Shown: one piece after another, positions 203 to 14,778 of the stretch
Layout of the letters: each line of letters starts with the position of its first letter
Numbering within the stretch: position 1 is the first letter of the stretch
Origin: Alphaproteobacteria bacterium
GTDB lineage: Bacteria; Pseudomonadota; Alphaproteobacteria; CAAHEQ01; UBA3637
Assembly: GCA_017513365.1 (NCBI GenBank)
Contig: JAFXFY010000141.1
Span: 1 to 27,876, forward strand
Direction of reading: 5' to 3'
Length of the DNA: 27,876 nucleotides
The notes under the pieces: model-generated
Told to the model about the DNA's origin: nothing
Seen by the model: the letters and a program-made list of their open reading frames with translations, nothing else
Databases searched by the model: none
Position numbers and translations under genes: made by a program

Positions 203-206
203 GGAT

Positions 207-368: not shown

Positions 369-401
369 TATCACAAAAACGACCGTTTTTTGGGTGATAA
401 A
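369..401. repeat. Right copy of the inverted repeat pair
   Basis: 372-401 CACAAAAACGACCGTTTTTTGGGTGATAAA is the reverse complement of 209-239 except for a T-run of 6 versus 7. Confidence 0.9.
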
Positions 402-423
402 TTAATAAAAAAAAGGAGAAAAT

Positions 424-1608
424 ATGCAATTAAAATTTGAAACTGGCCGTTCTATGGTTGAAATCATTGGTGTTTTAGCGGTTGCTGGCGTATTAAGCAT
501 TGGTGGTATTATGGGGTATTCCTATGGTATGAATAAATATCATGCCAATGAAGCCATTTATGATGTAAATATGCGTATGATTGATGTGGCCACTCATGTG
601 ATGCGAGGTGTACAAATTGACCAATTAGATTCGTCTTGGGGCGAGGCAAAAAGTGGATATGATATTGAATTATTCCACGATTCCGATTCCGAACCATCTA
701 TTATTGTTAAACAAGTACCGACAGGTGTTTGTAAAGAAATTTTAAAGTCTACACCGGATATACAAGATATTTTTGTTGGTTCCGAAAATGCAGACGGAAT
801 GGATGGCAGTTGGTATTTAGGCGACAATGAACACATTTGTGATGGCTCAGATAAAGATATGTTATTTGCTTTATCTCCGGAAATTTTAGCCGGATTTAAT
901 CCGGACGATGAAGCGTATGTTGAACCCGAAGGAACGGCAACAATACCTCCTCAATTAGAATGCTATTCTAATGCCGATTGCCGACCGGATAAACCGATTT
1001 GTGATAATGGTACGTGTGTAGAATGTACCAAAGACAGTCATTGTCCCAGTGACGAACCAAATTGTAATCCAAATACTAAATTGTGTACGGCTTGTTATGG
1101 TGAACCCAATGGGGCTCCTTGTGTGTTAGCCGGCAAAGATTACGAAGGTATGTGTTATGGAGATTCAAATTATGCATGTCTTAATTGGTGTGGTGAAACA
1201 CCATTGGTTGGCAGTTGTTCGTATATGAACAATTACTGTAAAAATCAAGGCGGTCGAGCCACAATTTATCAGTTAATGTTGATTTCGGATAATCCGCTCT
1301 ATTGTCAAACGCAAAAAGCGGCTGGGAATGAAGTTGTAGCTAAGTATGGTAGTAGTGTCGTATATACCTATACTGGAAAATGTCCGGATACCGAACGATA
1401 TAAAGGATTATGGAGTAAATTGAGAAATGGGTGTCCAGATAGAACCGGGAGATATATCAGTAATGTTGACAGGGTTGAAGTCAATAGAAGTGGATCATTA
1501 ACGGGATCTGAATGCGGTTCTGGAAACTGGTGGAGTTCTGGCGCTTGTTATGATGATGTTCAAGCCATCATTGATGCCTATGATGCAGCGAATCCAATAA
1601 CGGAGTAA
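424..1608 (+). CDS. Type IV prepilin-like protein with Cys-rich C-terminal repeats (putative minor pilin/adhesin)
   Basis: SD AAGGAG. N-terminus ETG|RSMVEIIGVLAVAGVLSIGG is a class III signal-like segment with E5 and a hydrophobic helix. Tandem C-x4-DC-x4-P-x-C repeats (ECYSNADCRPDKPIC; ECTKDSHCPSDEPNC). Confidence 0.8.
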   Translation: MQLKFETGRSMVEIIGVLAVAGVLSIGGIMGYSYGMNKYHANEAIYDVNMRMIDVATHVMRGVQIDQLDSSWGEAKSGYDIELFHDSDSEPSIIVKQVPTGVCKEILKSTPDIQDIFVGSENADGMDGSWYLGDNEHICDGSDKDMLFALSPEILAGFNPDDEAYVEPEGTATIPPQLECYSNADCRPDKPICDNGTCVECTKDSHCPSDEPNCNPNTKLCTACYGEPNGAPCVLAGKDYEGMCYGDSNYACLNWCGETPLVGSCSYMNNYCKNQGGRATIYQLMLISDNPLYCQTQKAAGNEVVAKYGSSVVYTYTGKCPDTERYKGLWSKLRNGCPDRTGRYISNVDRVEVNRSGSLTGSECGSGNWWSSGACYDDVQAIIDAYDAANPITE

Positions 1609-1623
1609 AGAGCCTTGACACAC

Positions 1624-1655
1624 AAAAACCCAGAGCTAAAAACTCTGGGTTTTTT
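1624..1655. terminator. Bidirectional intrinsic terminator
   Basis: AAAAACCCAGAG-ctaaaaa-CTCTGGGTTTTT between convergent genes. Confidence 0.85.
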
Positions 1656-1683
1656 CAGGAGGTTTCACTGAACAAAAAAAAGA

Positions 1684-2055
1684 TTAGTAGCCACAACGAC
1701 CTGTTGTTGCCCAATCTTCAACATCACCACCGTCTAACACAAAAACTGTTTGACAAGTGGCGGAACCGGTTGTAGAAACTGTCGTTTTGTTGCAAGCAGA
1801 AGTCGGGGCGACATAACCACAGTCAGACACTGTATAAATGCCATGTCCCATACCTAACCAACGAGTGGACACGTTTGTTTGAGACAAATCGTAAACCATA
1901 TATTTTTTGTCATGGGATTTATAAGCTCTGACTGGCAAACCCAAACGGGCGATAACTTCATCTTCACTACGTCCAATCCATGGATCCAAGTTTGTAGAAG
2001 TGGAACAAGCACCAAGCATAGCTAAAGCGGCAACTGTTAAAACGATTTTTTTCAT
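1684..2055 (-). CDS. Small lipoprotein, SmpA/OsmE-like motif
   Basis: True start is likely ATG 2055 (SD AAGGAG), not 2103. MKKIVLTVAALAMLGA-C lipobox; GRSEDEVIARLGLP resembles the SmpA/BamE/OsmE-type G-x-S-x-x-EV-x3-LG-x-P motif. Confidence 0.75.
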   Translation of the reverse strand: MKKIVLTVAALAMLGACSTSTNLDPWIGRSEDEVIARLGLPVRAYKSHDKKYMVYDLSQTNVSTRWLGMGHGIYTVSDCGYVAPTSACNKTTVSTTGSATCQTVFVLDGGDVEDWATTGRCGY

Positions 2056-2074
2056 AGTATCTCCTTTTATAAAA

Positions 2075-2090
2075 GTTAACAGATGGTTAA
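2075..2090 (-). promoter_or_regulatory. CtrA-type binding box
   Basis: Minus strand TTAA-CCATCTG-TTAAC matches the TTAA-N7-TTAAC consensus, 20 nt upstream of the lipoprotein ATG. The AT-rich background allows chance matches. Confidence 0.5.
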
Positions 2091-2167
2091 TTTGTATCAT
2101 CATTTTAACCGAAAGTCAATATTTTTTTTCAACTTTTTTATTTGTTGGACTGAAAAATGGTGAAAAA

Positions 2168-2190
2168 ATGTTGCAAAATATATGCAACAT
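2168..2190. promoter_or_regulatory. Inverted repeat, operator-like
   Basis: ATGTTGCA-aaatata-TGCAACAT, perfect 8-7-8 dyad between ccrM and the lipoprotein gene. Confidence 0.4.
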
Positions 2191-2213
2191 ATTGAAAAAA
2201 TACGATATTAATT

Positions 2214-3308
<1,095 letters not shown>

Positions 3309-3372
3309 TTAAAGTCACTTTAGCAAACAAATAGTCAAAATTAAGTTAACAAAATGATATTTTATGCACTTT

Positions 3373-3855
3373 TTAATCTATGATTTCATTTTTATACAGG
3401 CCATAAAACATATTTTTGGCCATCCACCCTTTGGCGGGTCCAAAATCTAACAGACAATAATCCGAACTTTTTGGACATTTTAAAATCCGACCGATTGTCC
3501 CTTTTTGAGCAATTGCCACGGTCTTACCATCTACCCGAGGTGCATTAGACAGAGGACCTTCCTCTAATACCAAAGCATGACGAACGCCGGAAATTTGAGT
3601 GCGATGAACCCAACCGGTTGTGCCGTCTATTTCACGAATTTGTCGCCACAATTCGTATTCATCAATGACTTCAACGGGGTATCCTTTTTCTTGATAAACC
3701 CACATAATCGGATATCGGTTGCCGGGGCCAGTGCGTAAATTGACTTGATTATGACGCAATGATACAAAACGAGGAACGGGAACACTTTCCACCGCCCATG
3801 CCGAAACGGCAAAATAAAATAATCCAAGTAAAGTACATACGATATACTTTATCAC
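3373..3855 (-). CDS. Secreted bacterial SH3-domain protein (SH3_4-type)
   Basis: Signal peptide; PVPRFVSL...VNLRTGPG.RYPI.WVY...WRQIRE.DG..GWVH. The GTG start overlaps the upstream stop (GTGA). Confidence 0.88.
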   Translation of the reverse strand: MIKYIVCTLLGLFYFAVSAWAVESVPVPRFVSLRHNQVNLRTGPGNRYPIMWVYQEKGYPVEVIDEYELWRQIREIDGTTGWVHRTQISGVRHALVLEEGPLSNAPRVDGKTVAIAQKGTIGRILKCPKSSDYCLLDFGPAKGWMAKNMFYGLYKNEIID

Positions 3856-4382
3856 TTGGCGGTCCTTTCTCGAATAGATACTTTGACCCGTTTTGGATTA
3901 TCTTGTTGAACGTTTGCTTGAGACTCTTCTTCAATGTGTTCTACATGCACTTCGGTTAAATTTTTTGGGCGTGTATTTAAATCGGTTTCAATTTCTTGCC
4001 ATGCTGTTTGAACAACCGGTACCAACAGCATTTGAGCAATTTGCATTCCACGGCGTAAAATGAAAGGTTCCCCGCTTTCGTTTCTAAGCAACACAAATAA
4101 AGGTTCTCTATCGGCCGGATGAATAATACTGGGCGCATCTACAACGATAATGCCGTTTTTTAAAGCCATATCCCGATTACTGACGATTTGTCCGCATAAT
4201 CCATCGGGTAGGGCAACGGCAAATCCGGTTGGAACACGAACTCGCTCACGTGGGCCGATTTTGACTGGCGCAGAAACAGCAGCCATTAGATTAAGACCAA
4301 CATGGTGTTTAGAAGTGTATGCCGGTAATGGAAAATCCATCCCGTCTGCCGTTCTGACAATATGAATTTTTGGTGTCATCAT
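3852..4382 (-). CDS. dUTPase-fold protein with degenerate catalytic motifs (probable pseudoenzyme)
   Basis: Recognisable trimeric dUTPase scaffold (LPAY, GPRERVRVPTGFAVALPDG, RGMQIAQMLLVPV), but motifs I, II and III are altered and motif V is absent. Start at 4382 or 4379. Confidence 0.8.
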   Translation of the reverse strand: MMTPKIHIVRTADGMDFPLPAYTSKHHVGLNLMAAVSAPVKIGPRERVRVPTGFAVALPDGLCGQIVSNRDMALKNGIIVVDAPSIIHPADREPLFVLLRNESGEPFILRRGMQIAQMLLVPVVQTAWQEIETDLNTRPKNLTEVHVEHIEEESQANVQQDNPKRVKVSIRERTAK

Positions 4383-4450
4383 GACTGATTTATGCCCTCT
4401 TTTACGTCATAGTGGCAAAAAATATGATAAAAGTCAAGGGGATTTTTTGT

Positions 4451-4479
4451 TTGACAATACCTCTTATTCATCTTATGTT
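4451..4479 (+). promoter_or_regulatory. sigma70-type promoter, probably giving a leaderless mRNA
   Basis: TTGACA-17-TATGTT; ATG lies 6 nt after the -10. Confidence 0.6.
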
Positions 4480-4485
4480 AGAAAT

Positions 4486-5043
4486 ATGAAAATAATATAT
4501 ACTTTGATGATAGGAATAGGTCTTATAATGCCGGCATTTTCCGGTTGTGCCGATACTCAGACATTTTTTTTAGCCCCTCAAAAACAAGCCATAGAAACAA
4601 AACAAAGTATTTCCTTTATGGGGGATACATATACGTTTGAGTATGGTGATGAAATTCAAAACGAATATTTTACAAATGGTGAAACGATAGATGGTTTCAG
4701 CTCGTTAATTGCCGTTCATATTTTTAAAAATCATACAGACCCATTGTTTGTTGCTCAAGGATTTTATGATAAATTGTTGGCAGATAATCAAGCTGCTCGT
4801 TTAGCTATTCACCGTTTTTCAAAAGAACCAACATTAATATTTATATTAACATCCGCCCAAGGATTTGAATTGAATTTGTGGCGTTTTTATCGCAATCCGA
4901 ACCGCGATGAAGTTATCGGTATGCAATATTTAAAAACATTTAAAACGCCACAGACCCAAGCCGAAAAAGACAGATTAAAAAGCCTCATTCAGATAATATC
5001 CGAACAATTCGCCATTTTACCTAAAATGCCCTTTATTCGTTAA
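4486..5043 (+). CDS. Hypothetical exported protein
   Basis: Start reassigned from 4381 to ATG 4486. MKIIYTLMIGIGLIMPAFSGCA is a signal-peptide-like (possibly lipoprotein) N-terminus; 4381-4485 contains promoter elements. Confidence 0.7.
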   Translation: MKIIYTLMIGIGLIMPAFSGCADTQTFFLAPQKQAIETKQSISFMGDTYTFEYGDEIQNEYFTNGETIDGFSSLIAVHIFKNHTDPLFVAQGFYDKLLADNQAARLAIHRFSKEPTLIFILTSAQGFELNLWRFYRNPNRDEVIGMQYLKTFKTPQTQAEKDRLKSLIQIISEQFAILPKMPFIR

Positions 5044-5126
5044 GATACAGGAAAAATGGCTTTTTTGTTTTATTAACCATTCGTTAGTAAAAAAGTTCTT
5101 GCAATTTACAAAAAAGTGTGTAAGAG

Positions 5127-5345
5127 TACTTTTTGAAAGTGGCAATGGTGCCATTTTCTGGGCGTCGAAACCCATTTAAAAAGCAGTCGTGTGCACACGA
5201 CTTAAAACAAAAAGCGCTGACTGAAGTCCTGCGGATAACGCATATGAAGGGGCGGATGTCGGTGAATAAGACCTCGGTGTCAAATAAGCCGAGCCATCTG
5301 CTTTTTATGGTTTTCGAACATCCGCCCACCAATGTGGGTTTTTTT
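5127..5345 (+). promoter_or_regulatory. Candidate structured 5' leader / attenuator upstream of the short pilin gene
   Basis: Hairpins at 5136-5157 and 5185-5202 (perfect 18-bp palindrome); helix 5250-5259/5318-5327; terminator CCCAC-caat-GTGGG-T7 at 5325-5345 overlapping that helix. Confidence 0.55.
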
Positions 5346-5381
5346 AATATGTTATAACAAATAAAGAAAGGATGTTTAAAC

Positions 5382-5780
5382 ATGAAAAAATTAGAATCTG
5401 GTCGTTCAATGGTTGAAATGTTGGGTGTATTGGCTATTATTGGCGTACTCTCCATCGGTGGTATCGCTGGGTACTCTATGGCCATGAACCGTTATCGTGC
5501 CAACGAAGTATTGAATGCCGCTCAAATGTTGTCTGTTGTAGCTCAATCTTCAGTGAATAAAACTGGTGATATGACTGAAACTTTGGAAAGCTTAGGTATT
5601 ACTGGTGCTGATGACAATACGATTCATAATTGTACATTGAGTGCCGATTATGGTTCTCCGGCAGTTGAAGTTACAGGTGACAATTGTGATTTAACAACAA
5701 TTGCCAATATCACAGGTAAAACGCATACGACACATATCATTAATGCGAATGGTCAATTAGGTGATCCCGCTGCAAACTAA
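5382..5780 (+). CDS. Short type IV prepilin-like protein (major-pilin-sized)
   Basis: MKKLESG|RSMVEMLGVLAIIGVLSIGGIAGY; 132 aa with a C-terminal Cys pair; SD AAGGA. Confidence 0.85.
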   Translation: MKKLESGRSMVEMLGVLAIIGVLSIGGIAGYSMAMNRYRANEVLNAAQMLSVVAQSSVNKTGDMTETLESLGITGADDNTIHNCTLSADYGSPAVEVTGDNCDLTTIANITGKTHTTHIINANGQLGDPAAN

Positions 5781-5789
5781 CCCCATAAC

Positions 5790-5930
5790 CTAAACCACAT
5801 TTTGCCTTTTTATCGGTTTTTGGCTGTGGTTTAGACGGAGCAACCCAAAAAACAAAAACCGATACCTCTTGTGCCAATGCTTAATTTTTTTTCTTGATTT
5901 AATTTTGTCGTAAGCGTTGGCACCTTTTTT
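5790..5930 (+). other. Structured 3' region: interleaved helices plus a long-loop terminator
   Basis: Helix A 5790-5799/5825-5834 (10 bp) and helix B 5811-5822/5853-5864 (12 bp) are interleaved; helix C 5871-5883/5911-5923 (13 bp, one GU) is followed by a T-run. Confidence 0.65.
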
Positions 5931-6074
5931 ATATCCAAAGAATAGTCAGCTAGTGTCATTAAAAATTAATAAAATAGAGTATAAAAAATTATTTTTCCTC
6001 TTGCATTTATTTTTGTGACGTGCTTAAATGACACCGCTAACGATATTTTTTAATACTTAATATGGAGAAAAGTT

Positions 6075-6944
6075 ATGAATTCTAAACCAGCTCATACACA
6101 TACAAAAGACGAAGCTTGCAAATGTGGTGAAAATTGCACTTGCTGTACGTCTTCTTGTTTTTCTAAATACTTAACACCGGCTGCTATCTTGGCAAGTGCT
6201 ATTTTGATTTCCGGTTCTATTTTATCCACGGTATCTAATAAACCATGTGATAAAATGGCTCATCAAATGAGAGGTCCGTCACAGGCTCAACAAGAAATAG
6301 TTATCAGAGACTACATTACAAAAAATCCGACTGTCATTATCAATGCATTGGATAAACATTATCAAGCTGAACAAGCTAAAGCTAAAAATGCTCAACCAGC
6401 TCCGCAAACTGAAGCTGATAAAGCTTTGGTTGATGAAATTTTAGCCGATAAAACGAACCATGTTTTGGGTAATCCGAACGGTAAATTTGTTATCATTGAG
6501 TTCTTTGACTATCAATGTGGTTGGTGTAAAAAAACAAACAAAGAAATTTCTGCCGTGTTAAAAGATGCTCCAAACATTCGTTGGGTATTAATGGATACGC
6601 CAATTTTTGGTGAAGCCAGTGAACAAATCGCTCGTTTTGCTATGGCTGCCGGTAAACAAGGTAAATTTAAAGAATACCATGAAGCTATCGGTAATGCAAA
6701 AGGCAAATTGGACAAAGACGCTTTGATTAAATTGGGTAAAGATTTGAAACTCAACACAAAACGTTTGGCTGCTGATGCCGAAAGTCAACAAGTAAAAGAT
6801 AAATTGGCTAACAATCAAAAATATGCTCGTCAATTGAACATCAATGGTGTTCCAATGTTGATTGTTGATGGTAAAATCAATCCGGGTGCTTTAATCGGTG
6901 ATAGATTAGCTGCCGCTGTAGAAGCTTCCAAAGCCAAAAAATAA
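6075..6944 (+). CDS. Membrane-anchored DsbA-family (ScsC/Com1-like) thioredoxin-fold protein
   Basis: EFFDYQCGWCK (CxxC) and GVP cis-Pro loop; N-terminal TM segment preceded by a Cys cluster. Confidence 0.9.
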   Translation: MNSKPAHTHTKDEACKCGENCTCCTSSCFSKYLTPAAILASAILISGSILSTVSNKPCDKMAHQMRGPSQAQQEIVIRDYITKNPTVIINALDKHYQAEQAKAKNAQPAPQTEADKALVDEILADKTNHVLGNPNGKFVIIEFFDYQCGWCKKTNKEISAVLKDAPNIRWVLMDTPIFGEASEQIARFAMAAGKQGKFKEYHEAIGNAKGKLDKDALIKLGKDLKLNTKRLAADAESQQVKDKLANNQKYARQLNINGVPMLIVDGKINPGALIGDRLAAAVEASKAKK

Positions 6945-6970
6945 TCCTTTAAACGGATAAAAAAATTAAG

Positions 6971-6997
6971 ACAGAGAGGTATTTCCTCTCTGTTTTT
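6971..6997 (+). terminator. Intrinsic terminator
   Basis: ACAGAGAGG-tattt-CCTCTCTGT-TTTT. Confidence 0.85.
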
Positions 6998-7002
6998 ATA
7001 TA

Positions 7003-7031
7003 TTGCATTTTGATTGGAAAGGCCGTACAAT
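7003..7031 (+). promoter_or_regulatory. sigma70-type promoter
   Basis: TTGCAT-17-TACAAT; ATG 9 nt downstream, no SD. Confidence 0.65.
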
Positions 7032-7040
7032 ACATTCGTT

Positions 7041-7871
7041 ATGAAAAAAACGGTTGTCATTTTATGTGGTTTAATGTTGGCTGCTTGTAATTCTTACAAA
7101 GTACCGATGGTTCCGACGTATCAACAAATTCCGGTTATACAAGTCAAAAAAGATGATACACTATATTCTTTAGCCCGTCGGTATGATACAACCGTACAAG
7201 AATTGGCCGAAAAAAATAATATTGACGATCCAACTGCTTTGAAAATTGGGCAAGATTTACGATTGCCCAAAGCGGTGCGAGTGGCCTCGTATGAATTAGA
7301 AAAACGACAAACGATTCAAAGTGAGGTAAAAAAGATATCTTCAAAAACGAAAACGGCAAATAAAAAAACGAAATTAACCACGTCTTCCAAACAATCACTA
7401 CAAAAAAATGCACAAGCATCTGTAAAAACGAAAAAAACATACCCTAAGCCAACGCAAAAAATGAAAAAATTGGATAAGCCTTTTGTGGCTACCGGAAAAG
7501 TCAATTTTGCTTGGCCGGTAAAGGGCAAGGTGATTTCTTCGTTCGGTTCTAAAGGTGGTGGCGTTAAAAATGACGGTATTAATATCGCAGCCAAAAAAGG
7601 AACGCCGATTAAATCTGCCGAAGCCGGTATTGTGGTTTATGCCGGTAATGAATTAAAGGGATATGGCAATTTATTGCTTATCCGTCATGAAAAAAACTTT
7701 ATGAGCGCTTATGCTCATGCGGATAAGTTGTTGGTAAAAACTGGTGATGTTGTGGCCAAAGGAGATAAAATTGCCACAGTTGGAACGACGGGAAATGTAA
7801 AACAACCTCAATTACATTTTGAAATTCGTAAAAAAACAAAATCCGTAGATCCAAAAAAATATTTACAATGA
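7041..7871 (+). CDS. nlpD: LysM + degenerate M23 (LytM) lipoprotein, NlpD-like
   Basis: Start reassigned to ATG 7041. Lipobox LAA-C; LysM (VKKDDTLYSLARRY...LKIGQDL); M23 with NDGINI (HxxxD lost), YAH and LHFEIR. Confidence 0.8.
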   Translation: MKKTVVILCGLMLAACNSYKVPMVPTYQQIPVIQVKKDDTLYSLARRYDTTVQELAEKNNIDDPTALKIGQDLRLPKAVRVASYELEKRQTIQSEVKKISSKTKTANKKTKLTTSSKQSLQKNAQASVKTKKTYPKPTQKMKKLDKPFVATGKVNFAWPVKGKVISSFGSKGGGVKNDGINIAAKKGTPIKSAEAGIVVYAGNELKGYGNLLLIRHEKNFMSAYAHADKLLVKTGDVVAKGDKIATVGTTGNVKQPQLHFEIRKKTKSVDPKKYLQ

Positions 7872-7926
7872 CATTATCGTGTGATACAATGCCCATATAA
7901 TTATGAATTAACCTGAAGGGGGTCAA

Positions 7927-9330
7927 ATGCCATCTAAATTTATTTTAACCATTTTGGGAACAACTTTTTTTGCCGGTTCTGTATGTGCGGGATTGCCTGA
8001 AGCTATTCGGTCGTATGAAGCCGGTCTGTATGCAGATGCCTTGTCCGAATTTACGTATTTAGCCGATGAACAAGATGCAACGGCTTTGTATTACTTAGGG
8101 CAAATGTACGAAAATGGACAAGGGGTTGAAAAAGATACCACTAAGGCTACCGAATATTATCAAAAAGCCGATGCTTTGGGTAATATGCAAGCGTCCGTTC
8201 AATTGGCTAAAACCGTTTTTTATGATGACACAATTGAAAATAATAAAGAAATTGGGTTAGAATATTTGAAAAAAACGGCCTATAACGGCAGTGCTGATGC
8301 TTTATATGAATTGGGTGAAATTTATCATACCGGGAATGGGGTGGATAAAGATTATTCTTATGCTTTTGGTTATTATTTAATGGCCTCAATGAAAGGGGAA
8401 AAACGGGCTCAACATAAATTGGCTCTTTCTTATATTAATGGGCGAGGTACACCACAAGATTTTGCCAATGGGATTAAATGGTTGGCTCGTTCGGCTAACC
8501 AAGGCTATGTTTTGGCTCAAAAAGAATTGGCCGATTATCAATCTTCGGATAGCAGATTGTTGAATTTGCCGGATGCCTATGCTTGGTATAGTATTATTGC
8601 GGCCTATAACTCTGATGATATTGGAACCGAGGCTGCTAGCCGTCGTGATGAAATTGCCCAAAAAATTTCAAAACAACAAGATGTGTTGTTAAAAAAACAA
8701 TTGGCGGCTCGTAATTGGCGTCCGATTACGCCGGAACAATCGGTATCTAAAGAGGATTTATTAAATACACCTATGCCGATTATCCCCGGTTTTAATGATT
8801 CGGTTACGGTTCAAAAAAGATTGTCCGGTGGGGCTGTATTGTATGCTGATGGGGCTAAATACGGTATTACGCCCGTTATGTTGGAAACAGCCGTTCAAAC
8901 AAAGGATATGACGCAATTAACTAAAACAATTGAAGATGCCGTTAAAAATGGTCATATCGGGGCCTATGCTTATTTGGGTGATTTGTTCCACACTCGTTTT
9001 AACGATGATACCAGTGCCTTTACATGGTATTTAAAGGGGGCAAAGCAAGGAGATGCCTATGCTAAGTATCAATTGGCGAATTTGTATTGTGAAGGGCGTG
9101 GTGTTGAAGCTCCAAATGTTGTAGAATGCTACAAGTGGTTGGTATCTGCCACCAATACAGAGGATGAAACTTTGGGGGCGACAATTGCTCAGGCTATGCG
9201 TGATGTGGAAAGTCAAGCAACTCCTGAGGAAATTGAAGCTGGTAAAACAGCTGCAGCTCAAATGGCTGAAGAGGTAAAGAAAGAAGCACCTAAGCAAAAT
9301 AAAGATAGCGGTGGATTTAATTTCTTCTAA
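7927..9330 (+). CDS. Secreted Sel1-like repeat protein
   Basis: Signal peptide; multiple ALYYLGQMYENGQGV / ALYELGEIYHTGNGV / AKYQLANLYCEGRGV-type repeats. Confidence 0.9.
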   Translation: MPSKFILTILGTTFFAGSVCAGLPEAIRSYEAGLYADALSEFTYLADEQDATALYYLGQMYENGQGVEKDTTKATEYYQKADALGNMQASVQLAKTVFYDDTIENNKEIGLEYLKKTAYNGSADALYELGEIYHTGNGVDKDYSYAFGYYLMASMKGEKRAQHKLALSYINGRGTPQDFANGIKWLARSANQGYVLAQKELADYQSSDSRLLNLPDAYAWYSIIAAYNSDDIGTEAASRRDEIAQKISKQQDVLLKKQLAARNWRPITPEQSVSKEDLLNTPMPIIPGFNDSVTVQKRLSGGAVLYADGAKYGITPVMLETAVQTKDMTQLTKTIEDAVKNGHIGAYAYLGDLFHTRFNDDTSAFTWYLKGAKQGDAYAKYQLANLYCEGRGVEAPNVVECYKWLVSATNTEDETLGATIAQAMRDVESQATPEEIEAGKTAAAQMAEEVKKEAPKQNKDSGGFNFF

Positions 9331-9351
9331 TTTAGATTAAGACATTTTAAG

Positions 9352-9386
9352 AAAATACCTTACTGATTATCGGTAAGGTATTTTTT
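9352..9386 (+). terminator. Intrinsic terminator
   Basis: AAAATACCTTAC-tgattatcg-GTAAGGTATTTT. Confidence 0.85.
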
Positions 9387-9544
9387 ATATTAATACTTTC
9401 GTATAGTTGGCTTGACTAAAGTCAATAGAATGCCAATATATAGGATGGTAATGCCCGTTGACATAATCGGGCAAGATAATCATCATATAATTGAACGCTT
9501 TTCCCTCAAACGGTCAAATATTTTTTGTATAAGAGGAGAAAAGT

Positions 9545-10501
9545 ATGCCGGCTGTATCCGTCATTATACCTGTTTATAACGTGCAGAAGTATTTAAACAG
9601 ATGTTTAGACAGTGTCTTATTCCAACGATTTCAAGATATTGAAATTATTTGTGTTAATGATGGCTCAATAGATGAGTGTGAACGTATTTTAGCCATTTAT
9701 GCTAAAGAACATAAACACATTAAAGTTATTTCCGGTGAAAATAGAGGGTTATCTGGTGCCAGAAATATCGGATTGGCACAAGCAACGGGAGAATGTATTT
9801 TTTTCTTAGATGCTGATGATGCCATTCATCCGGACTGTTTAGATATTTTATGGACTGTGTTAAATGATAGTGGGGCCGATATGGTTCATTGTCAATTTGA
9901 AAAAACAGACGGATTATCCAGACGATATCAAGATATTGAAACAGATAAAATAACATACCGTTTAATACCATCTTATTGTTTTTCCGGTAAGAAAAATATG
10001 GGATTTAATGTATGGTCTAATTTATATAAACGATCATTATTAGAGGGAATTCAATTTATTGATGGTATTCATTTTGAAGATGTCCCTTTTTTATTGACTG
10101 TATTGGCAAGACATCCAAAAATAGCCTCTGTAGATGAAAAATTATATTTTTATACCATCAATGAAAACTCCATTTCTCATAAACGAGCTAATCCACAACA
10201 AATTAGAGATTATCATACGGGATTAAATTACATTTATCATGTTTATAATCAAGCGGGGTTATTATCTGAATTAGAACGGTTAAAACGTACCTTTATTCCC
10301 GTTATTTTAAAACAACAGCTGGGACGTTGCCAAAGGGCAGACAAAACGATTCAATCAGAGATGTATCGGGCATTTGCTACAGAATTGAAAGATTTGAAAA
10401 CCAAAGGATTACTTGGGTGGAAAGGTCATAAACTACACCGGTATTTTACATATCGGTGGTTGATTATGCCTGAAGAAAGGGAAAATCATACCTCTGTATG
10501 A
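9545..10501 (+). CDS. Glycosyltransferase family 2
   Basis: VSVIIPVYNV, CVNDGS, NRGLSGARNIG, FLDADD, FEDV motifs; SD GAGGAG. Confidence 0.92.
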   Translation: MPAVSVIIPVYNVQKYLNRCLDSVLFQRFQDIEIICVNDGSIDECERILAIYAKEHKHIKVISGENRGLSGARNIGLAQATGECIFFLDADDAIHPDCLDILWTVLNDSGADMVHCQFEKTDGLSRRYQDIETDKITYRLIPSYCFSGKKNMGFNVWSNLYKRSLLEGIQFIDGIHFEDVPFLLTVLARHPKIASVDEKLYFYTINENSISHKRANPQQIRDYHTGLNYIYHVYNQAGLLSELERLKRTFIPVILKQQLGRCQRADKTIQSEMYRAFATELKDLKTKGLLGWKGHKLHRYFTYRWLIMPEERENHTSV

Positions 10502-10780
10502 TTTTTCCATGACAGAGTTATCTAAATATAATATGCTTTGTAAAAAATATTTTGATAGTTCTTTTAAGCAAACAGCCATTTAATTTTCTGGGTATTTAAA
10601 CGGTTGTTTGATTGTATACTGGTGTATAAGCTTGTCTTTTCTTCTAAAACACATATTTTGTTTTATTGGGTTAGGATATGGAGATATTGTACTGTTATTG
10701 AATTTTTTTAACAATTTAAAAAACGTATTCAATCGGAACGTGTGATTTGTGTCTAAGACAGAAGGCAAATTAAAATTGTC

Positions 10781-10809
10781 TTGACAAAAATGGTGAAAAA
10801 AGATAACAT
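10781..10809 (+). promoter_or_regulatory. sigma70-type promoter, probably giving a leaderless mRNA
   Basis: TTGACA-17-TAACAT; ATG 6 nt after the -10, no SD. Confidence 0.65.
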
Positions 10810-10815
10810 AACTAT

Positions 10816-12573
10816 ATGCAAATATTTAAAAGTTTTAAAAATACCTATCTGTTTCAAAATTATTCTAAAATTTATCCGTATGTTCGCCCATACTTAGGGC
10901 GTGCTATTTTGGCAATTTTGGTGACGTTGCCTTTGGGGGCAATGGATGCCGTCATTGCATGGGTTTTAAAACCCTATATGGATATTGTTATGATTGAAAA
11001 AAGTGCTAAAGCGACTTCTTTTTTGCCCCTATTGATTATTATTTTCAGTTTGGCACAAAGTTCGTTAAATTATGCGGCGACCTATTTAAATACGTGGGTT
11101 GGTAATAAAATTACCATGGATTTAAAAAAGGATTTGTTTAAAAAAATGATGCGGTGTGATGCTTCATTTTTTGATAAAACAACTTCTGGTGATGTGATGT
11201 TCCGTTTTAACCAAGATGCTGATATGGCTTGTAGCGGATTATTGAGTAATTTAAAATTATTTACGACTCGTTTATTTTCATCAATTTCATTAATTTTTGT
11301 GTTGATTTATAATTCGTGGCAATTATCCATTATCGCTATTACAGTTTTGTTTGGGGCATTGTATCCATTAACAAAGGTACGTAAAAAAATTAAAGGGATT
11401 ATGGATAAAACGGTGTTTTCCGGCGCTCGTGTGATGACACATTATAATGAAGCGTTTAGTGGCAATCGGGTTGTGTCCTCTTTTAATTTGTATGAATATC
11501 AATCTAATCGTTTTAATGAAACGTTACGAGCCGTTTTCAAATTAGGTATGAACATGACCAAAAAAACGGGCATGTTGACACCAATGATGCATTTTGTTGT
11601 GTCTATCGGGATTGCGGGTGTGATTTGGCTGGGTAGTTATTTAATTACAACCAATCAATTAACGCCTGGTGGGTTTGTATCGTTTATTACGGCTTTGTTA
11701 ATGTTATATCATCCGATTAAATCCATTGGGACAAATTATACCAGTGTGCAAATGTCATTTTTGGCCATTGAACGTGTTTTTGAACGATTGAATGCTGTTC
11801 CTGATATTTGTAGTAAACACAATGCTGTTAAAATCAACGGCATTAAATCGGGGGTAGAATTTGACAATGTTTGTTTTGAATATGAAAAAGGTCGTCCGGT
11901 TTTACAAGATGTTTCATTAACGGTTAAAAAAGGTCAAACAGTTGCTTTCGTCGGTAATTCCGGTGGCGGAAAAAGTACGTTGGTGAATTTGTTGCCTCGT
12001 TTTTATGATGTGAAATCCGGTGCCGTTAAAATAGACGGGCAAGATGTGCGGGATATTGATATAGATTCCTTAAGAGATCAAATTGCCATTGTGTTTCAAG
12101 ATAATGTTTTGTTTGCCGGTACCATTCGTGACAATATTATGTTGGGTAAAGCAACGGCAACTCAACAAGAAATTGACCGAGCCGTTCATAATGCCTGTTT
12201 AGATGAATTTATCGCATCGTTACCAAATGGGTTAGATACCGAAATTGGTGAACGAGGGACTAAATTGTCCGGTGGGCAAAAGCAACGTGTAGCAATTGCT
12301 CGGGCTTTTCTAAAAAATGCGCCGATGGTCATTTTAGATGAAGCCACTTCGGCATTGGATAATAAATCGGAAGAAATTGTTCAGCAAGCTATTTATAATT
12401 TGATGGAAGACAGGACAGTTTTTGTGATTGCACACCGATTGTCTACGGTCAAAAATGCAGATAAAATCGTTGTGATAGATCATGGTGTCGTGCAAGAAAC
12501 CGGAACCCATGAAGAGTTGTTGAATAAACAAAATTCTTTATATGCTTCGTTGTATAATACTCAAATAAAATAG
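10816..12573 (+). CDS. msbA: ABC exporter TMD-NBD fusion, MsbA-like
   Basis: N-terminal multi-TM domain; Walker A GNSGGGKST, LSGGQKQR, ILDEATSALD, AHRLST. Substrate assignment is by resemblance only. Confidence 0.8.
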   Translation: MQIFKSFKNTYLFQNYSKIYPYVRPYLGRAILAILVTLPLGAMDAVIAWVLKPYMDIVMIEKSAKATSFLPLLIIIFSLAQSSLNYAATYLNTWVGNKITMDLKKDLFKKMMRCDASFFDKTTSGDVMFRFNQDADMACSGLLSNLKLFTTRLFSSISLIFVLIYNSWQLSIIAITVLFGALYPLTKVRKKIKGIMDKTVFSGARVMTHYNEAFSGNRVVSSFNLYEYQSNRFNETLRAVFKLGMNMTKKTGMLTPMMHFVVSIGIAGVIWLGSYLITTNQLTPGGFVSFITALLMLYHPIKSIGTNYTSVQMSFLAIERVFERLNAVPDICSKHNAVKINGIKSGVEFDNVCFEYEKGRPVLQDVSLTVKKGQTVAFVGNSGGGKSTLVNLLPRFYDVKSGAVKIDGQDVRDIDIDSLRDQIAIVFQDNVLFAGTIRDNIMLGKATATQQEIDRAVHNACLDEFIASLPNGLDTEIGERGTKLSGGQKQRVAIARAFLKNAPMVILDEATSALDNKSEEIVQQAIYNLMEDRTVFVIAHRLSTVKNADKIVVIDHGVVQETGTHEELLNKQNSLYASLYNTQIK

Positions 12574-12594
12574 TGGGATAAAAGGAGAGATAAA

Positions 12595-13479
12595 ATGAAA
12601 AAAATGTTAAATTATATTGCTAACGGCAAAGGAATTGGTCTGAAATATTTTACGTTATTTTCAATTTTAGTTTGTATTTTATGTTGGTTTATTTTTTCTT
12701 CCGTTGTTATGAAAAATACACAAACGAATGAACATCTGAATCAGTTTTTCAGTAAAGTGCCAACCTTGGAAATTGCTGATGGTCGTTTGATTGAACCGAA
12801 AAATACCTATTTATCTATCCCGATTGTAGAAGGGTATAGTGATGAATTAATCATTAATACGGTTCCCGAAATACCGGTTAATTTAAATTTTGCGTCGGGT
12901 ATTTATTTATCGTCTGATGCGGTGTATTTTAAGGTACCGGCTTTAGCTAATGATATTCAAGTTATTCAGTGGTCCGAAGTTGGTAATCGCGTCATTGATC
13001 GTGCCGCTTTAGAAAATGGATTGCAGGGGATTATCGGTATTTTTTCTACTTTATTAGCACTGATTTTCTGTTGTATTTTATGGGCCGGATATGTGTTGAT
13101 ACAAATTACGACAAAGTTGTTCTTTTGGGTTTTGGGATATCATACGGGTAAAGGGCAAACGGGTCGTGCTGCAACAGTGTCTTGGATAGGGGTTTTAAGT
13201 GTCAACTTCTTATTGTTATTTGCTTCTTTGCAGCTCAGTATCCCTGTGATATTTATCATGGCAATTGTATTAGCGTTGGCTTTAGTCTTTAAGTCCCCGA
13301 AACAAGAGCAACAATCAGTATCCGGTCATTCATTCTTTGATACAGTACCGGTATCAGAAAAAGAGGTAGAAACACCGGTACAAACACCGGATAAGCCTGT
13401 AAAAGTGGCGAGTAAAAAGAAAAATTTAAAGTTGGCGGAAAAACCACGCAGAGAGCCGACTAAAAAAGTTAAAAAATAA
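12595..13479 (+). CDS. Hypothetical integral membrane protein
   Basis: SD AAGGAG; one N-terminal TM, a periplasmic segment, several further TMs and a Lys-rich tail. Confidence 0.8.
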   Translation: MKKMLNYIANGKGIGLKYFTLFSILVCILCWFIFSSVVMKNTQTNEHLNQFFSKVPTLEIADGRLIEPKNTYLSIPIVEGYSDELIINTVPEIPVNLNFASGIYLSSDAVYFKVPALANDIQVIQWSEVGNRVIDRAALENGLQGIIGIFSTLLALIFCCILWAGYVLIQITTKLFFWVLGYHTGKGQTGRAATVSWIGVLSVNFLLLFASLQLSIPVIFIMAIVLALALVFKSPKQEQQSVSGHSFFDTVPVSEKEVETPVQTPDKPVKVASKKKNLKLAEKPRREPTKKVKK

Positions 13480-13482
13480 CAT

Positions 13483-13514
13483 AAATGCCCATCATTTCGG
13501 TGGGCATTTTTTTT
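13483..13514. terminator. Bidirectional intrinsic terminator
   Basis: AAATGCCCATC-atttc-GGTGGGCATTT-TTTTT between convergent genes. Confidence 0.8.
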
Positions 13515-13529
13515 AACTTGCAAAATAAT

Positions 13530-14480
13530 CTAATTGCCACGACAAACGGCAATATACGCATGATGATTATGTCTTCTTGTTTTTGCTTCTTTAGACAAAC
13601 CACTGGTAATATCGACCATATATGCCGTTGTGCTGTTGACTTGTGTTGCTGTCCAAACGCCTCTTGGATTAGACGCATTAATAAAACCTTTATTTTTTAA
13701 TTCATTCATCAAGTTTGAGGGACCATTTGCGGTTGAATCCCATAGTTCATCTGTTGTTGGTAATCTTTTGCCTAACAGACCGCAAATTTTGTTTGCTTGA
13801 TACCAATTGGGAGTATGTTGCATATTAAACATCCATGCCCAAATAGAACACCACTCTTCCCCATCAATTTCGGCACATTTACGAATACCATACTTTAAAC
13901 ACTCCTCTTTGTTACTTTCTGAACTATATAAGCACGATGTTTCAAAATCACATTCTGTATCACCACATGTTTCAGGTATTCCATAATAAAAAGTCATATC
14001 ATTATCATCATTACATGCCGTGCTATCTCCAACAGCGACAGAATTAATGCTGATTTGGGTAATAGATGTATCCGCCCCTTCTATAATCATTTCGCATACA
14101 TACTTAGGTACACCTAACAGGCTCATGTCTACAGCATCATGTCCGGCAACATATCCGTAATCTCCCCATTCATACCCAACCGTGGAATGGGTTCCCCATT
14201 GGTCTAAATTTAACTCTTGTCCGTTTTCTTTTTGTGTAAGTAAATCAATACTGCGCAAATTGATGTCATTTATGGTGGTATTCGCTCGGTATTTATCCAT
14301 GCCGTAGGAATATCCGGCAATTCCACCGATACTTAACACACCGATAATAGCGAGTGTTCCCAGCATTTCAACCATAGAACGACCGGATTCAGACATTCTG
14401 CTGTCATTCTTGTGCGTAGCGTTAGCGAAGACACGAGAATCCAGTATATTGATTTCTTCTTGTTTAATATTCATAGCCAT
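13530..14480 (-). CDS. Type IV prepilin-like protein with C-terminal C-type-lectin-like (Lcl/DUF1566-type) domain
   Basis: SESG|RSMVEMLGTLAIIGVLSIGG after a long leader; C-terminal NWYQANKICGLLGKRLPTTDEL ... VWTAT ... AYMV ... YIAVC. Confidence 0.8.
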   Translation of the reverse strand: MAMNIKQEEINILDSRVFANATHKNDSRMSESGRSMVEMLGTLAIIGVLSIGGIAGYSYGMDKYRANTTINDINLRSIDLLTQKENGQELNLDQWGTHSTVGYEWGDYGYVAGHDAVDMSLLGVPKYVCEMIIEGADTSITQISINSVAVGDSTACNDDNDMTFYYGIPETCGDTECDFETSCLYSSESNKEECLKYGIRKCAEIDGEEWCSIWAWMFNMQHTPNWYQANKICGLLGKRLPTTDELWDSTANGPSNLMNELKNKGFINASNPRGVWTATQVNSTTAYMVDITSGLSKEAKTRRHNHHAYIAVCRGN

Positions 14481-14700
14481 ATGCTTCCCTTCCTTTGTTA
14501 TTAATAACTAAAACGAAAACCACGCTTTTATAAAAAGTGTGGCTGGAAGTTGAAGACTATTGAAGAGAATAGTGTGGCATATTCGGCATTTCTGCCTATT
14601 TTGCCGCCCTCCAGCCAACGCTGGAAAGCGTATATTTTTCGTCCGCTATCGGACGCTCTTCAAAGAGGTCTTCATACCTCAGGGCAGAATAACTGCCCTG
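14481..14700 (-). promoter_or_regulatory. Candidate structured 5' leader / attenuator
   Basis: Hairpins at 14680-14700, 14665-14680, 14640-14655 and 14610-14625; alternative helix 14610-14617/14540-14547; terminator 14520-14542 with U-tract 14510-14519. Confidence 0.6.
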
Positions 14701-14705
14701 CATAT

Positions 14706-14734
14706 AACATATCAAATATTACACTGTAATGCAA
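14706..14734 (-). promoter_or_regulatory. sigma70-type promoter with a dyad in the spacer
   Basis: Minus strand TTGCAT-17-TATGTT; ATTACA-c-TGTAAT palindrome at 14718-14730. Confidence 0.6.
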
Positions 14735-14778
14735 TACTTTTGTGATGCAAAAAAATGATGTTATTTATAAAAAAAGTT

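Follow-up and report, generated by a model that had tools for sequence, protein, structure and literature searches.

Pilin-like genes with a shared G|RSMVE signature and two kinds of upstream switch in an uncultured gut alphaproteobacterium

The window analysed here, a stretch of 27,876 nucleotides from an uncultured gut alphaproteobacterium, contains three dispersed genes, P0001, P0002 and P0003, whose translations all show SG|RSMVE, then a hydrophobic stretch, then SIGGI.GY, and each gene stands behind an unusual upstream element. These are two palindromes (206-250 and 368-400) before P0001, a leader RNA (14512-14705) before P0003 and a divergent copy of this leader (5135-5347) before P0002. 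The locus raises the question of what such proteins are and how their expression is set. The first-pass annotation had read them as a short structural pilin and individually regulated tip adhesins, and had placed the signature in uncultured gut Alphaproteobacteria, where the hosts indeed belong; its observation was confirmed, its interpretation partly supported. The signature shared by the three genes is not due to chance. We consider it probable that a radiation of type IVb-like pilins, an R64-like assembly machine and two cis-acting switches, taken jointly, account for the locus. One gene lies behind a probably flippable promoter segment and two behind a leader RNA without a match in Rfam.

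A leader RNA before P0003 and P0002

The leader before P0003 (14512-14705, minus strand) is about 190 nt long, was delineated with alignment A3 and RNAalifold, and scores 161.9 bits with model R1. Immediately upstream the sequence reads as a promoter-like TTGCAT-17-TATGTT (14706-14734, minus strand), a position kept in the 19 aligned paralogue leaders with the consensus TTGnnn, about 17 nt, TAnanT. The fold includes the helices P0 (14699-14681), P1 (14680-14668 with 14557-14546) and P3 (14628-14620 with 14615-14608), together with a terminator (14542-14519, with a U-run to 14509) and a competing antiterminator (14616-14608 with 14549-14541), all on the minus strand. According to this model the multi-helix fold (P1-P5) would permit the terminator to form, and pairing of the P3 3' arm with the junction between the 3' arm of P1 and the 5' arm of the terminator would create the alternative helix by which termination is prevented.

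Both alternative helices covary. Compensatory changes were found at 20 of 33 pairs among 19 leader copies, and in a set of 39 copies, drawn from over 20 genomes, 96.8% of the cells are paired, with the antiterminator helix paired in 305 of 305 cells, CG/UA swaps included; these pairing percentages are inflated, since alignment A4 was fitted to the leader model. The covariation score was 0.544 in the 39 copies versus 0.249 in shuffled and 0.06-0.12 in slid alignments. Against 4227 Rfam families no match in sequence or structure appeared, with the limit relaxed to E<=10.

Upstream of P0002, where a tRNA-like element had been suspected, the tRNA search found none, and the element is instead the divergent leader copy (5135-5347, plus strand; R1 27.8 bits, E 1.3e-6 within the window). 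It aligns end to end and retains P1, P2, P4, P5 and the terminator, with a 42-nt insert in the place of P3, and it would serve as the gate of P0002. This upstream region is 88% identical to that of the short pilin-like gene on contig C157.

Model R1 has 35 matches in the genome, 31 of them strong, and 12 of the strong copies precede other genes, mostly for secreted lectin-like proteins, lipoproteins and surface proteins. As one common element that also precedes non-pilin genes, the leader points to a shared regulon and to regulation that is not purely individual; the individual control proposed earlier therefore holds for the invertible-promoter class only. The leader is present in 22 of the 24 genomes from this taxonomic family, at 31-46 copies per genome within the genus, and absent from all 16 genomes outside the family.

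The leader may respond to a small molecule, to an RNA or to a protein. There is somewhat less than an even chance that it is no metabolite riboswitch but an attenuator that responds to temperature, to a small RNA or to a protein, and this alternative concerns the effector only. It draws on the fact that a ligand is not inferable, on the number of copies per genome, which resembles that of a regulon operator, and on the P0 loop, whose covarying complementarity to the terminator loop suggests a self-contained fold. A metabolite riboswitch, on the other hand, is favoured by the multi-helix junction, whose invariant unpaired stretches CAAAAUA and GAAUAU are typical of ligand pockets, and by the two GGDEF proteins and RelA/SpoT encoded in the genome, so that nucleotide second messengers are available. 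In Clostridioides difficile a c-di-GMP riboswitch lies upstream of pilA1. Like such riboswitches and attenuators of pilus genes, the present leader places mutually exclusive terminator and antiterminator pairings before pilin and other surface-protein genes; unlike them, its P1 encloses four helices, the loop of its 5' hairpin matches the terminator loop, and it is present in very many copies (31 strong ones in a genome of 1.27 Mb).

The pilin-like family and its putative assembly machine

A genome-wide ORF scan (1.27 Mb, uncultured gut alphaproteobacterium) for G-x4-E followed by at least 14 hydrophobic residues revealed 44 ORFs, with Arg at +1 in 43 and Tyr in one, a paralogue count that might be slightly off because contig ends truncate many paralogues and contamination of the bin amounts to 6%. 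The Gly at -1 and the Arg at +1 are invariant in two alignments of homologues (105 and 119 sequences), and so is the Glu at +5, in exact register with the Gly. Arg at +1 contravenes the hydrophobic-start rule. The leader peptides are mostly of 7-13 aa, while those of classical type IVb pilins are longer. No canonical G|F prepilin was found in the genome; N_methyl exceeds the Pfam cut-off in the G|Y member only, the remaining matches being the Arg family at 12-18 bits, and all scores of this family on the Pfam and NCBIfam prepilin models are sub-threshold. All 24 genomes of the same taxonomic family contain such genes (5-71 copies each), as does one of the 16 genomes taken from elsewhere in the class. 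Judged by these sequences, the 44-gene set is best explained as type IVb-like pilins that radiated within the lineage and bear a putative class III signal peptide, SG|RSMVE; cleavage at G|R is predicted to yield mature proteins that begin with Arg.

P0002 (5382-5780, plus strand; 132 aa, 7-aa leader MKKLESG) is one of three short pilin-like genes in the genome, the others being paralogues on contigs C157 and C239, and has 5433 homologues. Its AlphaFold model (pLDDT 82.6) consists of a helix at 5-56 and a small beta head; pilins predominate among its structural matches, which are all weak (E 0.21 with Foldseek; Z 5.7 at best, and 4.3-4.8 for the pilins). P0002 and the other proteins of about 130 aa are candidate major subunits, which would form the filament.

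In P0001 (424-1608, plus strand; 394 aa by translation) an 8-aa leader, MQLKFETG, precedes the predicted mature start RSMVE, a pilin module of about 140 aa and a Cys-rich C-terminal head. No Pfam family matched the protein, and an Atlas search with the head found no match. P0003 (13530-14480, minus strand; 316 aa) has a 33-aa leader if 14480 is the start, then a pilin module, a linker and a head at residues of about 188-316. The two long proteins, as had been noticed, share an N-terminal segment and then diverge: their 40% identity (E 2e-21) is confined to residues 6-133, within about the first 140, and the C-terminal parts are unrelated. The P0003 model (AlphaFold, pLDDT 79.5) shows a helix at 35-85, a beta domain and a second domain after it, and Foldseek matched the Bd2740 C-terminal domain, the Lcl C-terminal domain, the CofA pilus, TcpA and PilS. 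Both modelled proteins have a long N-terminal helix and a beta head, and P0003 resembles, as far as the model goes, a type IVb pilin with a grafted C-type-lectin-like (Lcl/DUF1566-like) head. The long proteins would be modular pilins with a constant pilin module and diverse grafted heads, lectin-like in P0003 and Cys-rich in P0001, and might act as tip adhesins on a structural pilin.

The genome also holds the peptidase and assembly genes that had been looked for: peptidase, extension ATPase, platform protein and PilN-type secretin. The single A24 prepilin peptidase (Peptidase_A24, E 4e-16; motifs DQQYFLLPD and GAGDVK) shows neither a methylase domain nor a Cys-rich N-domain, and its gene is unlinked to the pilus cluster. 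This cluster, on another contig, follows the R64 thin-pilus order: PilN secretin (TIGR02520, E 1.5e-83), PilO (PF06864, E 2.7e-29), a PilP-like protein (E 1.5e-6), ATPase and platform protein, the last two matched by T2SSE and T2SSF. The earlier statement that the window lacks assembly genes is not quite right, since bases 2-220 (minus strand, divergent from P0001) carry the beginning of a gene for a PilT-family (T2SSE) ATPase. This assignment follows from the 96%-identical orthologous locus L017, where the gene (100-1575) has Walker A, Asp box, Walker B and His box, and from contig C69, where the remainder lies (11540-12706; PF00437 E 3.6e-30; TIGR01420 pilT_fam E 8e-34, under the TIGR01420 cut-off). 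We suggest that the peptidase would cut after the Gly, leaving an unmethylated Arg start with Glu kept at +5, and that the R64-like machine, with the PilT-family ATPase, would assemble the subunits.

It is unlikely that these proteins are something other than pilus subunits, their N-terminus being an uncleaved membrane anchor or another export signal for diverse periplasmic or surface domains, and the pilus machine serving few of the 44 proteins or none. The sub-threshold scores on prepilin models speak for such an anchor, 44 substrates would be unusual for one small machine, and a charged +1 residue is, to our knowledge, unreported for processed pilins. However, the invariant Gly and Glu are in exact register; the modelled 50-residue N-terminal helix and beta head match type IVb pilins; and the genome has retained the peptidase and a full machine, yet offers no other candidate substrate.

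The R64 thin pilus (IncI1), the Salmonella Typhi pil system and the PAPI-1 type IVb pili have a PilN-O-P-Q-R machine, PilS as major pilin and PilV adhesins, and the R64 shufflon exchanges the PilV C-termini through the tyrosine recombinase Rci. The gene order is the same here, a short pilin likewise accompanies long ones with constant N-terminal and variable C-terminal parts, and as in R64 DNA inversion would vary the adhesin repertoire. Unlike in R64, forty-odd separate genes are scattered over the chromosome in place of segments of one gene, a promoter segment is inverted, probably by a serine Mpi-type invertase, and the Arg at +1, the mostly short leader peptides and the unlinked peptidase gene also set the present system apart. 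Adhesive domains grafted on a pilin module are known from PilB and PilC of Streptococcus sanguinis (PMC8179133, PMC9934059, review PMC10191384). P0003 likewise has, after its pilin module, a distinct domain whose fold is known from binding proteins elsewhere; S. sanguinis has two modular pilins of type IVa in a monoderm, whereas here dozens of putatively adhesive ones belong to a diderm whose machine is type IVb-like.

The invertible segment before P0001

The left recombination site (206-250) is a palindrome of two half-sites (210-227 and 230-247) around a central GT (228-229); the right site (368-400) consists of an inner half (368-381), a central AC (382-383) and an outer half (384-400), and ends 23 nt before the P0001 ATG. 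Between the two cores lies a segment of about 154 bp (230-381). It has weak sigma-70-like matches, at 320-348 on the plus and at 337-308 on the minus strand, but the promoter scan gave scores no better than those of shuffles, and no match was convincing. In the orthologous locus L017 the segment has the opposite orientation, at 94% identity, next to a left flank that is 96% collinear. In the sister genome (G004) the outer half and GT are followed by the right site's inner half in reverse complement; the inner half-sites are swapped exactly at the central GT, the expected product of a serine recombinase. The sister contig breaks within the segment. Paralogues on C156, C239, G004:C118 and G004:C7 are also preceded by this segment, in one orientation or the other.

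The only serine recombinase of the genome passes the Mpi-family model NF009949 (293.5 bits, cut-off 272) and is Gin-like in comparison with the PDB, and Mpi-type invertases adjoin pilin-like genes in several genera. Most likely this enzyme flips the P0001 segment, by a crossover at the GT/AC dinucleotide that would result in phase variation, one orientation presumably being ON. Upstream of 5 of 43 family genes, versus 1 of 271 control genes, there are inverted repeats whose arms reach 23 nt or more, in agreement with the suggestion that upstream switches are enriched at the family.

It is very improbable that the palindromes are mobile (MITE/REP-type) or terminator-like repeats inserted either way, with no programmed inversion. 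Each site could fold into a hairpin, the copies are dispersed, one of them preceding a non-pilin gene on C94, and the comparison within one population, which covered assembled contigs, showed no inversion joint; at the orthologous locus, however, only the DNA between the cores is reversed, with half-sites exchanged at GT, and both the break inside the segment and the Mpi-family invertase, with its relatives beside pilin-like genes, favour programmed inversion.

Near-identical 5' coding regions are common to the paralogues, and the 5' parts of P0001 and P0003 are joined in contigs from other samples. It is hardly credible that the upstream similarity has no regulatory role and reflects only flanks copied together with the genes in recent duplication or gene conversion, as these two observations might suggest, since compensatory changes preserve five helices and the alternative helix in more than 20 genomes of 15 genera, and unrelated genes are also preceded by the leader.

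In Bacteroides fragilis the master serine invertase Mpi acts on dispersed invertible promoters (PMC10403206, PMC4747536). The gut habitat, the Mpi-family recombinase and several dispersed promoter-size segments, with inverted sites, ahead of surface-structure genes are common to both organisms; the phylum is different, the targets are pilin-like proteins here and capsule loci there, and the present sites are long palindromes with half-sites of about 18 nt and a 2-nt core.

Predicted arginine at +1 in a large family of pilin-like genes

The three pilin-like genes of the window, P0001 (424-1608, plus strand, 394 aa), P0002 (5382-5780, plus strand, 132 aa) and P0003 (13530-14480, minus strand, 316 aa), all encode SG-RSMVE, then a hydrophobic stretch and then SIGGI.GY. 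The two long proteins share their N-terminal segment and diverge after it: P0001 and P0003 are 40% identical over the first ~140 residues (E 2e-21), and the rest is unrelated. These features had been noticed in the first-pass annotation and were confirmed as a whole. The interpretation offered there, a pilus or secretion system with a short structural pilin and a repertoire of individually regulated tip adhesins, proved largely right and has to be amended at two points: the regulation is partly shared, and one assembly-type gene touches the window.

The first-pass annotation had proposed to count the paralogues genome-wide. The genome bin, in which the window is contig C125, is 1.27 Mb long (39% GC, 252 contigs, 96.9% complete, 6% contamination). 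A scan of all six frames for G-x4-E with 14 or more hydrophobic residues behind it returned 45 matches in total, 43 with Arg at +1, one with Tyr at +1 and one spurious, which gives 44 family genes; the same scan found no G|F or G|M prepilin in the genome. Gly stands at -1 in all 44 members and Glu at +5 is invariant, RSMVE being followed by at least 14 hydrophobic residues, and in alignments of 105 and 119 public homologues both the Gly and the Arg are invariant. The leader peptides are mostly 7-13 aa long with E/Q-S/T-G preceding the predicted cut, and that of P0003 may reach 33 aa. At 19 of the 44 genes the contig ends within the gene; the family thus fragments the assembly, and the figure of 44 is approximate. 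The C-terminal parts fall into at least 15 groups that are mutually unrelated by BLAST, with the heads of P0001 and P0003 each a singleton within the genome, and short genes (~130 aa) are three: P0002, one on contig C157 and one on contig C239.

Type IV pilins have about 20-25 mainly hydrophobic residues past the cut, often with Glu at +5, and their +1 residue is usually hydrophobic (Phe, Met, Leu and similar); here, however, this position is occupied by Arg in 43/44 members. Such a charged residue, invariant in a family of thousands of sequences, challenges the usual view of prepilin recognition and of the contact between Glu5 and the N-terminus in the filament core. A hydrophilic leader peptide with terminal Gly or Ala is a further criterion for type IV pilins (PMC10191384).

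When the whole genome was searched with the Pfam model N_methyl (PF07963), only the single G|Y member scored above the cut-off, whereas the Arg members reached 12-18 bits against a cut-off of 21.2; overall, the PF07963 scores of Arg-type proteins lie at 11-18 bits. For P0001, P0002 and P0003, Pfam and NCBIfam gave sub-threshold prepilin matches only, with TIGR02532 under its cut-off. Since all Arg-type members remain under the Pfam cut-off, standard models under-annotate the family. Its public protein relatives (1292 for P0003 and 5433 for P0002) are unnamed, hypothetical or labelled 'type II secretion system protein', PulG, PilE or FimT/FimU, and their organism, where given, is nearly always 'Alphaproteobacteria bacterium'. 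The attribution of this signature to uncultured gut Alphaproteobacteria was borne out by the carriers, which are MAGs of that name from roe deer, goat, buffalo, rabbit and human guts. Each of 24 genomes from its own taxonomic family, which cover 16 genera, had between 5 and 71 matches, and 1/16 genomes from other families of the class had the family. A literature search for the motif GRSMVE gave no match, and one for RF32, Alphaproteobacteria and pilin found no paper linking them.

The 'lollipop' fold of type IV pilins combines a long helix at the N-terminus with the beta-sheet head on which it packs, and the predicted structures of P0003 and P0002 have this pilin fold, a long helix with a beta head, as the first-pass reading would lead one to expect. 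In the P0003 model (105-sequence alignment, pLDDT 79.5) the helix spans 35-85 and the beta domain after it reaches to ~166; beyond a low-confidence linker, residues 188-316 form a second domain. Foldseek matched the N-terminal module to the CofA pilus (9iuf), TcpA (8uhf) and S. Typhi PilS (3fhu) in the PDB, and the head to the C-terminal domains of Bd2740 from Bdellovibrio (E 1.8e-3, TM 0.62-0.66 on target) and of Lcl from Legionella (E 5e-3), to CD94/NKG2A and to Link modules, all with modest E-values (1.8e-3 to 1e-1); Pfam gave no Lcl or DUF1566 match for this head at E<=1. The P0002 model (pLDDT 82.6) is helical over 5-56 and has a small beta head; its weak structural matches were mostly pilins (gonococcal pilin, CofA, PilV, PilE, FimA and PilM of R64-type systems), where both the best Foldseek E against the PDB, 0.21, and the wide VIA search, with Z at most 5.7, are suggestive only. 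An Atlas search gave no usable match for the head of P0001. On the predicted structures and their fold matches in the PDB, the family is filed as type IVb-like pilins, despite a +1 residue that fails the usual rule.

The leader RNA upstream of P0003 and its regulon

P0003 is preceded by a structured leader RNA (14512-14705, minus strand). The upstream regions of 19 paralogues align across ~190 nt, past a conserved promoter-like TTGnnn-17-TAnanT. On this alignment RNAalifold placed the long-range helix P1 (GAGGUnUGAAGAC with GUCUUCAACUUC in P0003), the helix P3 (CUUUCCAG/CUGGAAGG), a variable hairpin P2 and a helix P4 enclosing an inner hairpin; two further hairpins belong to the fold, P5, which is invariant (ACUAU/AUAGU), and P0 at the 5' end. 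An intrinsic terminator with a U-run lies directly 3' of P1. The sequence CUUCCAGyC, which covers the last bases of P1 and the first of the terminator, is a repeat of the 5' arm of P3 and can pair with the 3' arm of P3 instead.

In the 19-copy alignment compensatory changes were found at 20/33 pairs. A covariance model built from these copies was evaluated on 39 copies taken from over 20 genomes, in which 96.8% of cells were paired (shuffled 82%, slid 37-47%), a percentage that leans high as the alignment was fitted to the model. Both sides had changed at 23/33 pairs, and the covariation score was 0.544 against 0.249 for shuffled alignments (0/500 as high) and 0.06-0.12 for slid ones. The alternative, antiterminator helix was paired in 305/305 cells, with CG/UA exchanges, and base exchanges were plain in an independent MAFFT alignment too. 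The leader is a conserved structured element with mutually exclusive P3 and antiterminator pairings, supported by covariation.

The folded state with P1 and P3 would let the terminator form, while the alternative helix would take up the 3' strand of P1 together with the first terminator bases and lead to read-through; anything that stabilises the leader fold would be expected to turn the genes down. The loop of P0 is complementary to the terminator loop and co-varies with it (GUGAUG:CAUCAC, UGGUGU:ACACCA, GGCGC:GCGCC), the mean complementarity being 3.08 against 2.36 for permuted pairs (0/2000 as high), a difference inflated by sequence relatedness. This suggests a kissing-loop contact between the two loops, by which the terminator would be part of the fold. 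In the window the P0 loop lies at ~14693-14688 and the terminator loop at ~14532-14529, and in other copies (loci L064-L093 of other genomes) the two change together across genera.

Against Rfam 15 the window was empty at gathering score, and the stretch 14400-14800 stayed without a match even at E<=10. The region upstream of P0002 (5135-5347) aligns end to end with the leader model at 27.8 bits, keeping P1, P2, P4, P5 and the terminator, with P3 replaced by a 42-nt insert. A 'tRNA-like cloverleaf' considered at 5250-5331 was dropped, as the tRNA scan was empty and the region is this divergent leader copy. As to the effector, the genome encodes two GGDEF proteins and one RelA/SpoT protein, which shows only what nucleotide signals are possible; c-di-AMP is unlikely, since no DAC domain was found in the genome.

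The leader model matches 35 copies in the genome, 31 of them strong. Twelve strong copies precede non-pilin genes, most of which encode lipoproteins, other exported proteins and five Sec-signal proteins of ~140 aa with the lectin-like motif of the P0003 head. The regulation, which had been taken to act on each pilin-like gene individually, is therefore partly shared, by pilin and non-pilin genes alike. Within the taxonomic family the leader was found in 22/24 genomes (1-46 copies), and in 0/16 outside it; in other genera lipoproteins, outer-membrane-like proteins, glycosyltransferase-like and pilin-like genes stand behind it. The leader can be regarded as an abundant, strongly covarying two-state orphan switch with a regulon of surface proteins, and is directly testable.

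The ~140-aa Sec-signal proteins (…ETCANG…WWNAYAWCDA…) are encoded on contigs C224 (gene from ~2100), C223, C82, C57 and C208 and at loci L064 and L090 of other genomes. By their sequence they look as if the lectin-like P0003 head occurred as a protein of its own, and each of their genes is preceded by the same leader RNA as P0003.

Probable invertible DNA upstream of P0001 and other family genes

The sites at 206-250 and 368-400, which flank the candidate invertible segment upstream of P0001 (230-381, ~154 bp), are two copies of one palindromic site in opposite orientation, each with ~18-nt half-sites flanking two core bases, GT in the left copy and AC in the right. The whole module of ~200 bp recurs upstream of paralogues on contig C156, oriented to the gene as at P0001, and on C239, inverted, before the gene of a non-pilin secreted protein on C94, at the contig end of C130, and in 4/5 other genomes of the genus. 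At the orthologous locus of the sister genome G004 the left flank corresponds to window 2-239 (96% identity), and the 142 bases that follow run in reverse along window 404 to 265 (94%), where the contig ends. The left site of G004 consists of the left outer half-site of the window, GT, and the reverse complement of the right inner half-site of the window; judged by its sequence, this hybrid site is the product of a crossover at the core. Opposite orientations of one locus, with the crossover inside the inverted repeats, are seen between two genomes of one genus.

The search of contigs assembled from public runs (Logan) with window 1-15000 found no inversion joint at 230-381, a result uninformative for inversion within the population and for expression. 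Contigs from three such runs (X2, X3 and X19) join window ~547-556 to ~14280-14359, the conserved 5' parts of P0001 and P0003 on opposite strands, with sides of 32-33 nt. These joints may have arisen as assembly chimeras over the N-terminal coding sequence that both genes share, or may reflect mosaic paralogues of other strains. A promoter scan of 1-460 gave two 9/12 matches, no more than shuffles give, and hence no convincing promoter in the segment.

The sole Resolvase-family gene of the genome lies on contig C239 (7551-8144), adjoining a short pilin gene, and encodes a serine recombinase of 198 aa that starts …YIRVST…. Its PDB matches were Gin-like (E 5e-17), but the Hin/Gin-like label was set aside, as NCBIfam assigns it to the 'master DNA invertase Mpi family', with 293.5 bits on NF009949 (cut-off 272). 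Genes of this kind occur, 1-7 each, in 48/61 genomes of the taxonomic family, and several abut pilin-like genes.

Upstream elements no more frequent at these genes than elsewhere had been named as evidence against the first-pass reading. Inverted repeats that enclose 50-320 bp and have arms of 23 nt or more were found at 5/43 family genes with enough upstream sequence on the contig, against 1/271 other genes having a long upstream region. Among these five are two loci with a second site type (C56 and C92) and one with 61-nt arms (C88).

The second site type, …TGTCAAAAAAACG-TC-CCTTTTTTTGAC…, stands upstream of the pilin-like genes of C56 and C92 with arms of up to 44 nt and a ~104-bp spacer, and these two loci are 94% identical. 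On C88 inverted repeats with 61-nt arms around 145 bp (~72-339) lie upstream of and extend into the gene at 327-1934, the right arm holding the start codon and first codons of this pilin-like gene; the arrangement represents a different type of inversion, possibly one that swaps coding sequence. The P0001-type module on C94 (903-1097) is flanked on one side by the gene of a Cys-rich Sec-signal protein (301 aa, minus strand) and on the other by a short remnant resembling the start of the C156 pilin-like gene. One of the two tyrosine recombinases of the genome (350 aa, PF00589) is encoded on C5 (~1000-2050, minus strand), directly upstream of the pilin-like gene at 3-905 and its leader, and may be XerC/D or a further switch enzyme.

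Assembly machinery and relation to known systems

The absence of a prepilin peptidase and of T4P/T2SS machinery from the genome had been named as evidence against a pilus; the genome has both. A Peptidase_A24 protein of 235 aa encoded on contig C60 (2090-2797) has both Asp motifs (…VDQQYFLLPD… and …GAGDVK…), and no Cys-rich methylase domain was found in it. Complex prediction of this peptidase with the first 50 residues of P0002 scored 0.01, which says nothing about binding either way. Contig C143 has five genes on one strand, which encode a secretin (TIGR02520, PilN family, 281.1 bits, E 1.5e-83, cut-off 287.65, from an ORF truncated at the contig end), PilO (PF06864, 102.7 bits, E 2.7e-29, above cut-off), a PilP-like protein (29.2 bits, below the cut-off of 34.65), a GspE/PilB-type ATPase of 743 aa (T2SSE above cut-off) and a platform protein (T2SSF above cut-off).

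The statement that the window holds no assembly genes has to be withdrawn, since a second T2SSE ATPase, nearest the PilT family, has its first codons at window 2-220 (minus strand). Its gene ends contig C69 (11540-12706), which probably joins the window at the left edge; the link is based on the orthologous locus L017 of the sister genome G004, 96% identical. This ATPase has a long Pro/Ala/Thr-rich N-terminal region, and its gene diverges from P0001 across the invertible segment. A third T2SSE match, on contig C200, was rejected as a pilus ATPase, as it adjoins a TrbI/VirB10 gene of a conjugation-type system. There an ORF of 1839 aa (6121-11640, minus strand, open at the contig end), with five beta-flower repeats fused to the TrbI/VirB10 domain, neighbours a VirB11-like ATPase gene and represents an unusual component of conjugation-type secretion.

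The thin pilus of R64 has the gene order pilN-O-P-Q-R, and that of C143 is the same; both the machine and the layout of short and long pilins are closest to the R64-type type IVb pilus. Long leader peptides are a classical but non-discriminating criterion for type IVb pilins (PMC10191384), unlike which the leaders of this family are mostly short. The long proteins fit the concept of modular pilins (PMC8179133, PMC9934059). The DNA switch of P0001 fits the Mpi invertase system with invertible promoters of Bacteroides (PMC10403206; PMC4747536), although the host phylum differs, and Mpi-family invertons, known from Bacteroides, would appear to operate in Alphaproteobacteria too. The leader would act like a terminator/antiterminator riboswitch or attenuator, apparently outside every described family. 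Known systems lack four features seen here: an invariant Arg at +1 combined with a peptidase predicted to be methylase-less, the scale, with some 3-4% of all genes in a reduced genome, the phylum that hosts the Mpi-type switches, and the leader RNA, which is new. If the predictions hold, this share of the genes would serve modular pilin-like proteins, lectin-tipped and Cys-rich, under phase variation, which points to attachment to a host or partner as the central trait in the lifestyle of an uncultured, widespread animal-gut lineage.

A reading that joins all of this, in which the leader is a new riboswitch class, the unmethylated Arg(+1) pilins represent a new chemistry of the filament core and the Mpi-type invertons add stochastic choice, is tentative and, taken as a whole, rather doubtful. 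Should it be true, one intracellular signal would gate most of the surface repertoire (30-46 genes per genome), the Arg side chain would replace the methylated hydrophobic N-terminus as the partner of Glu5, and a gut symbiont of 1.3 Mb would run a three-layer programme of surface variation.

A gene for a DsbA-like oxidoreductase lies in the window ~300 bp downstream of P0002 (6075-6944, plus strand); its product might act on the Cys-rich heads, of which the family has many.
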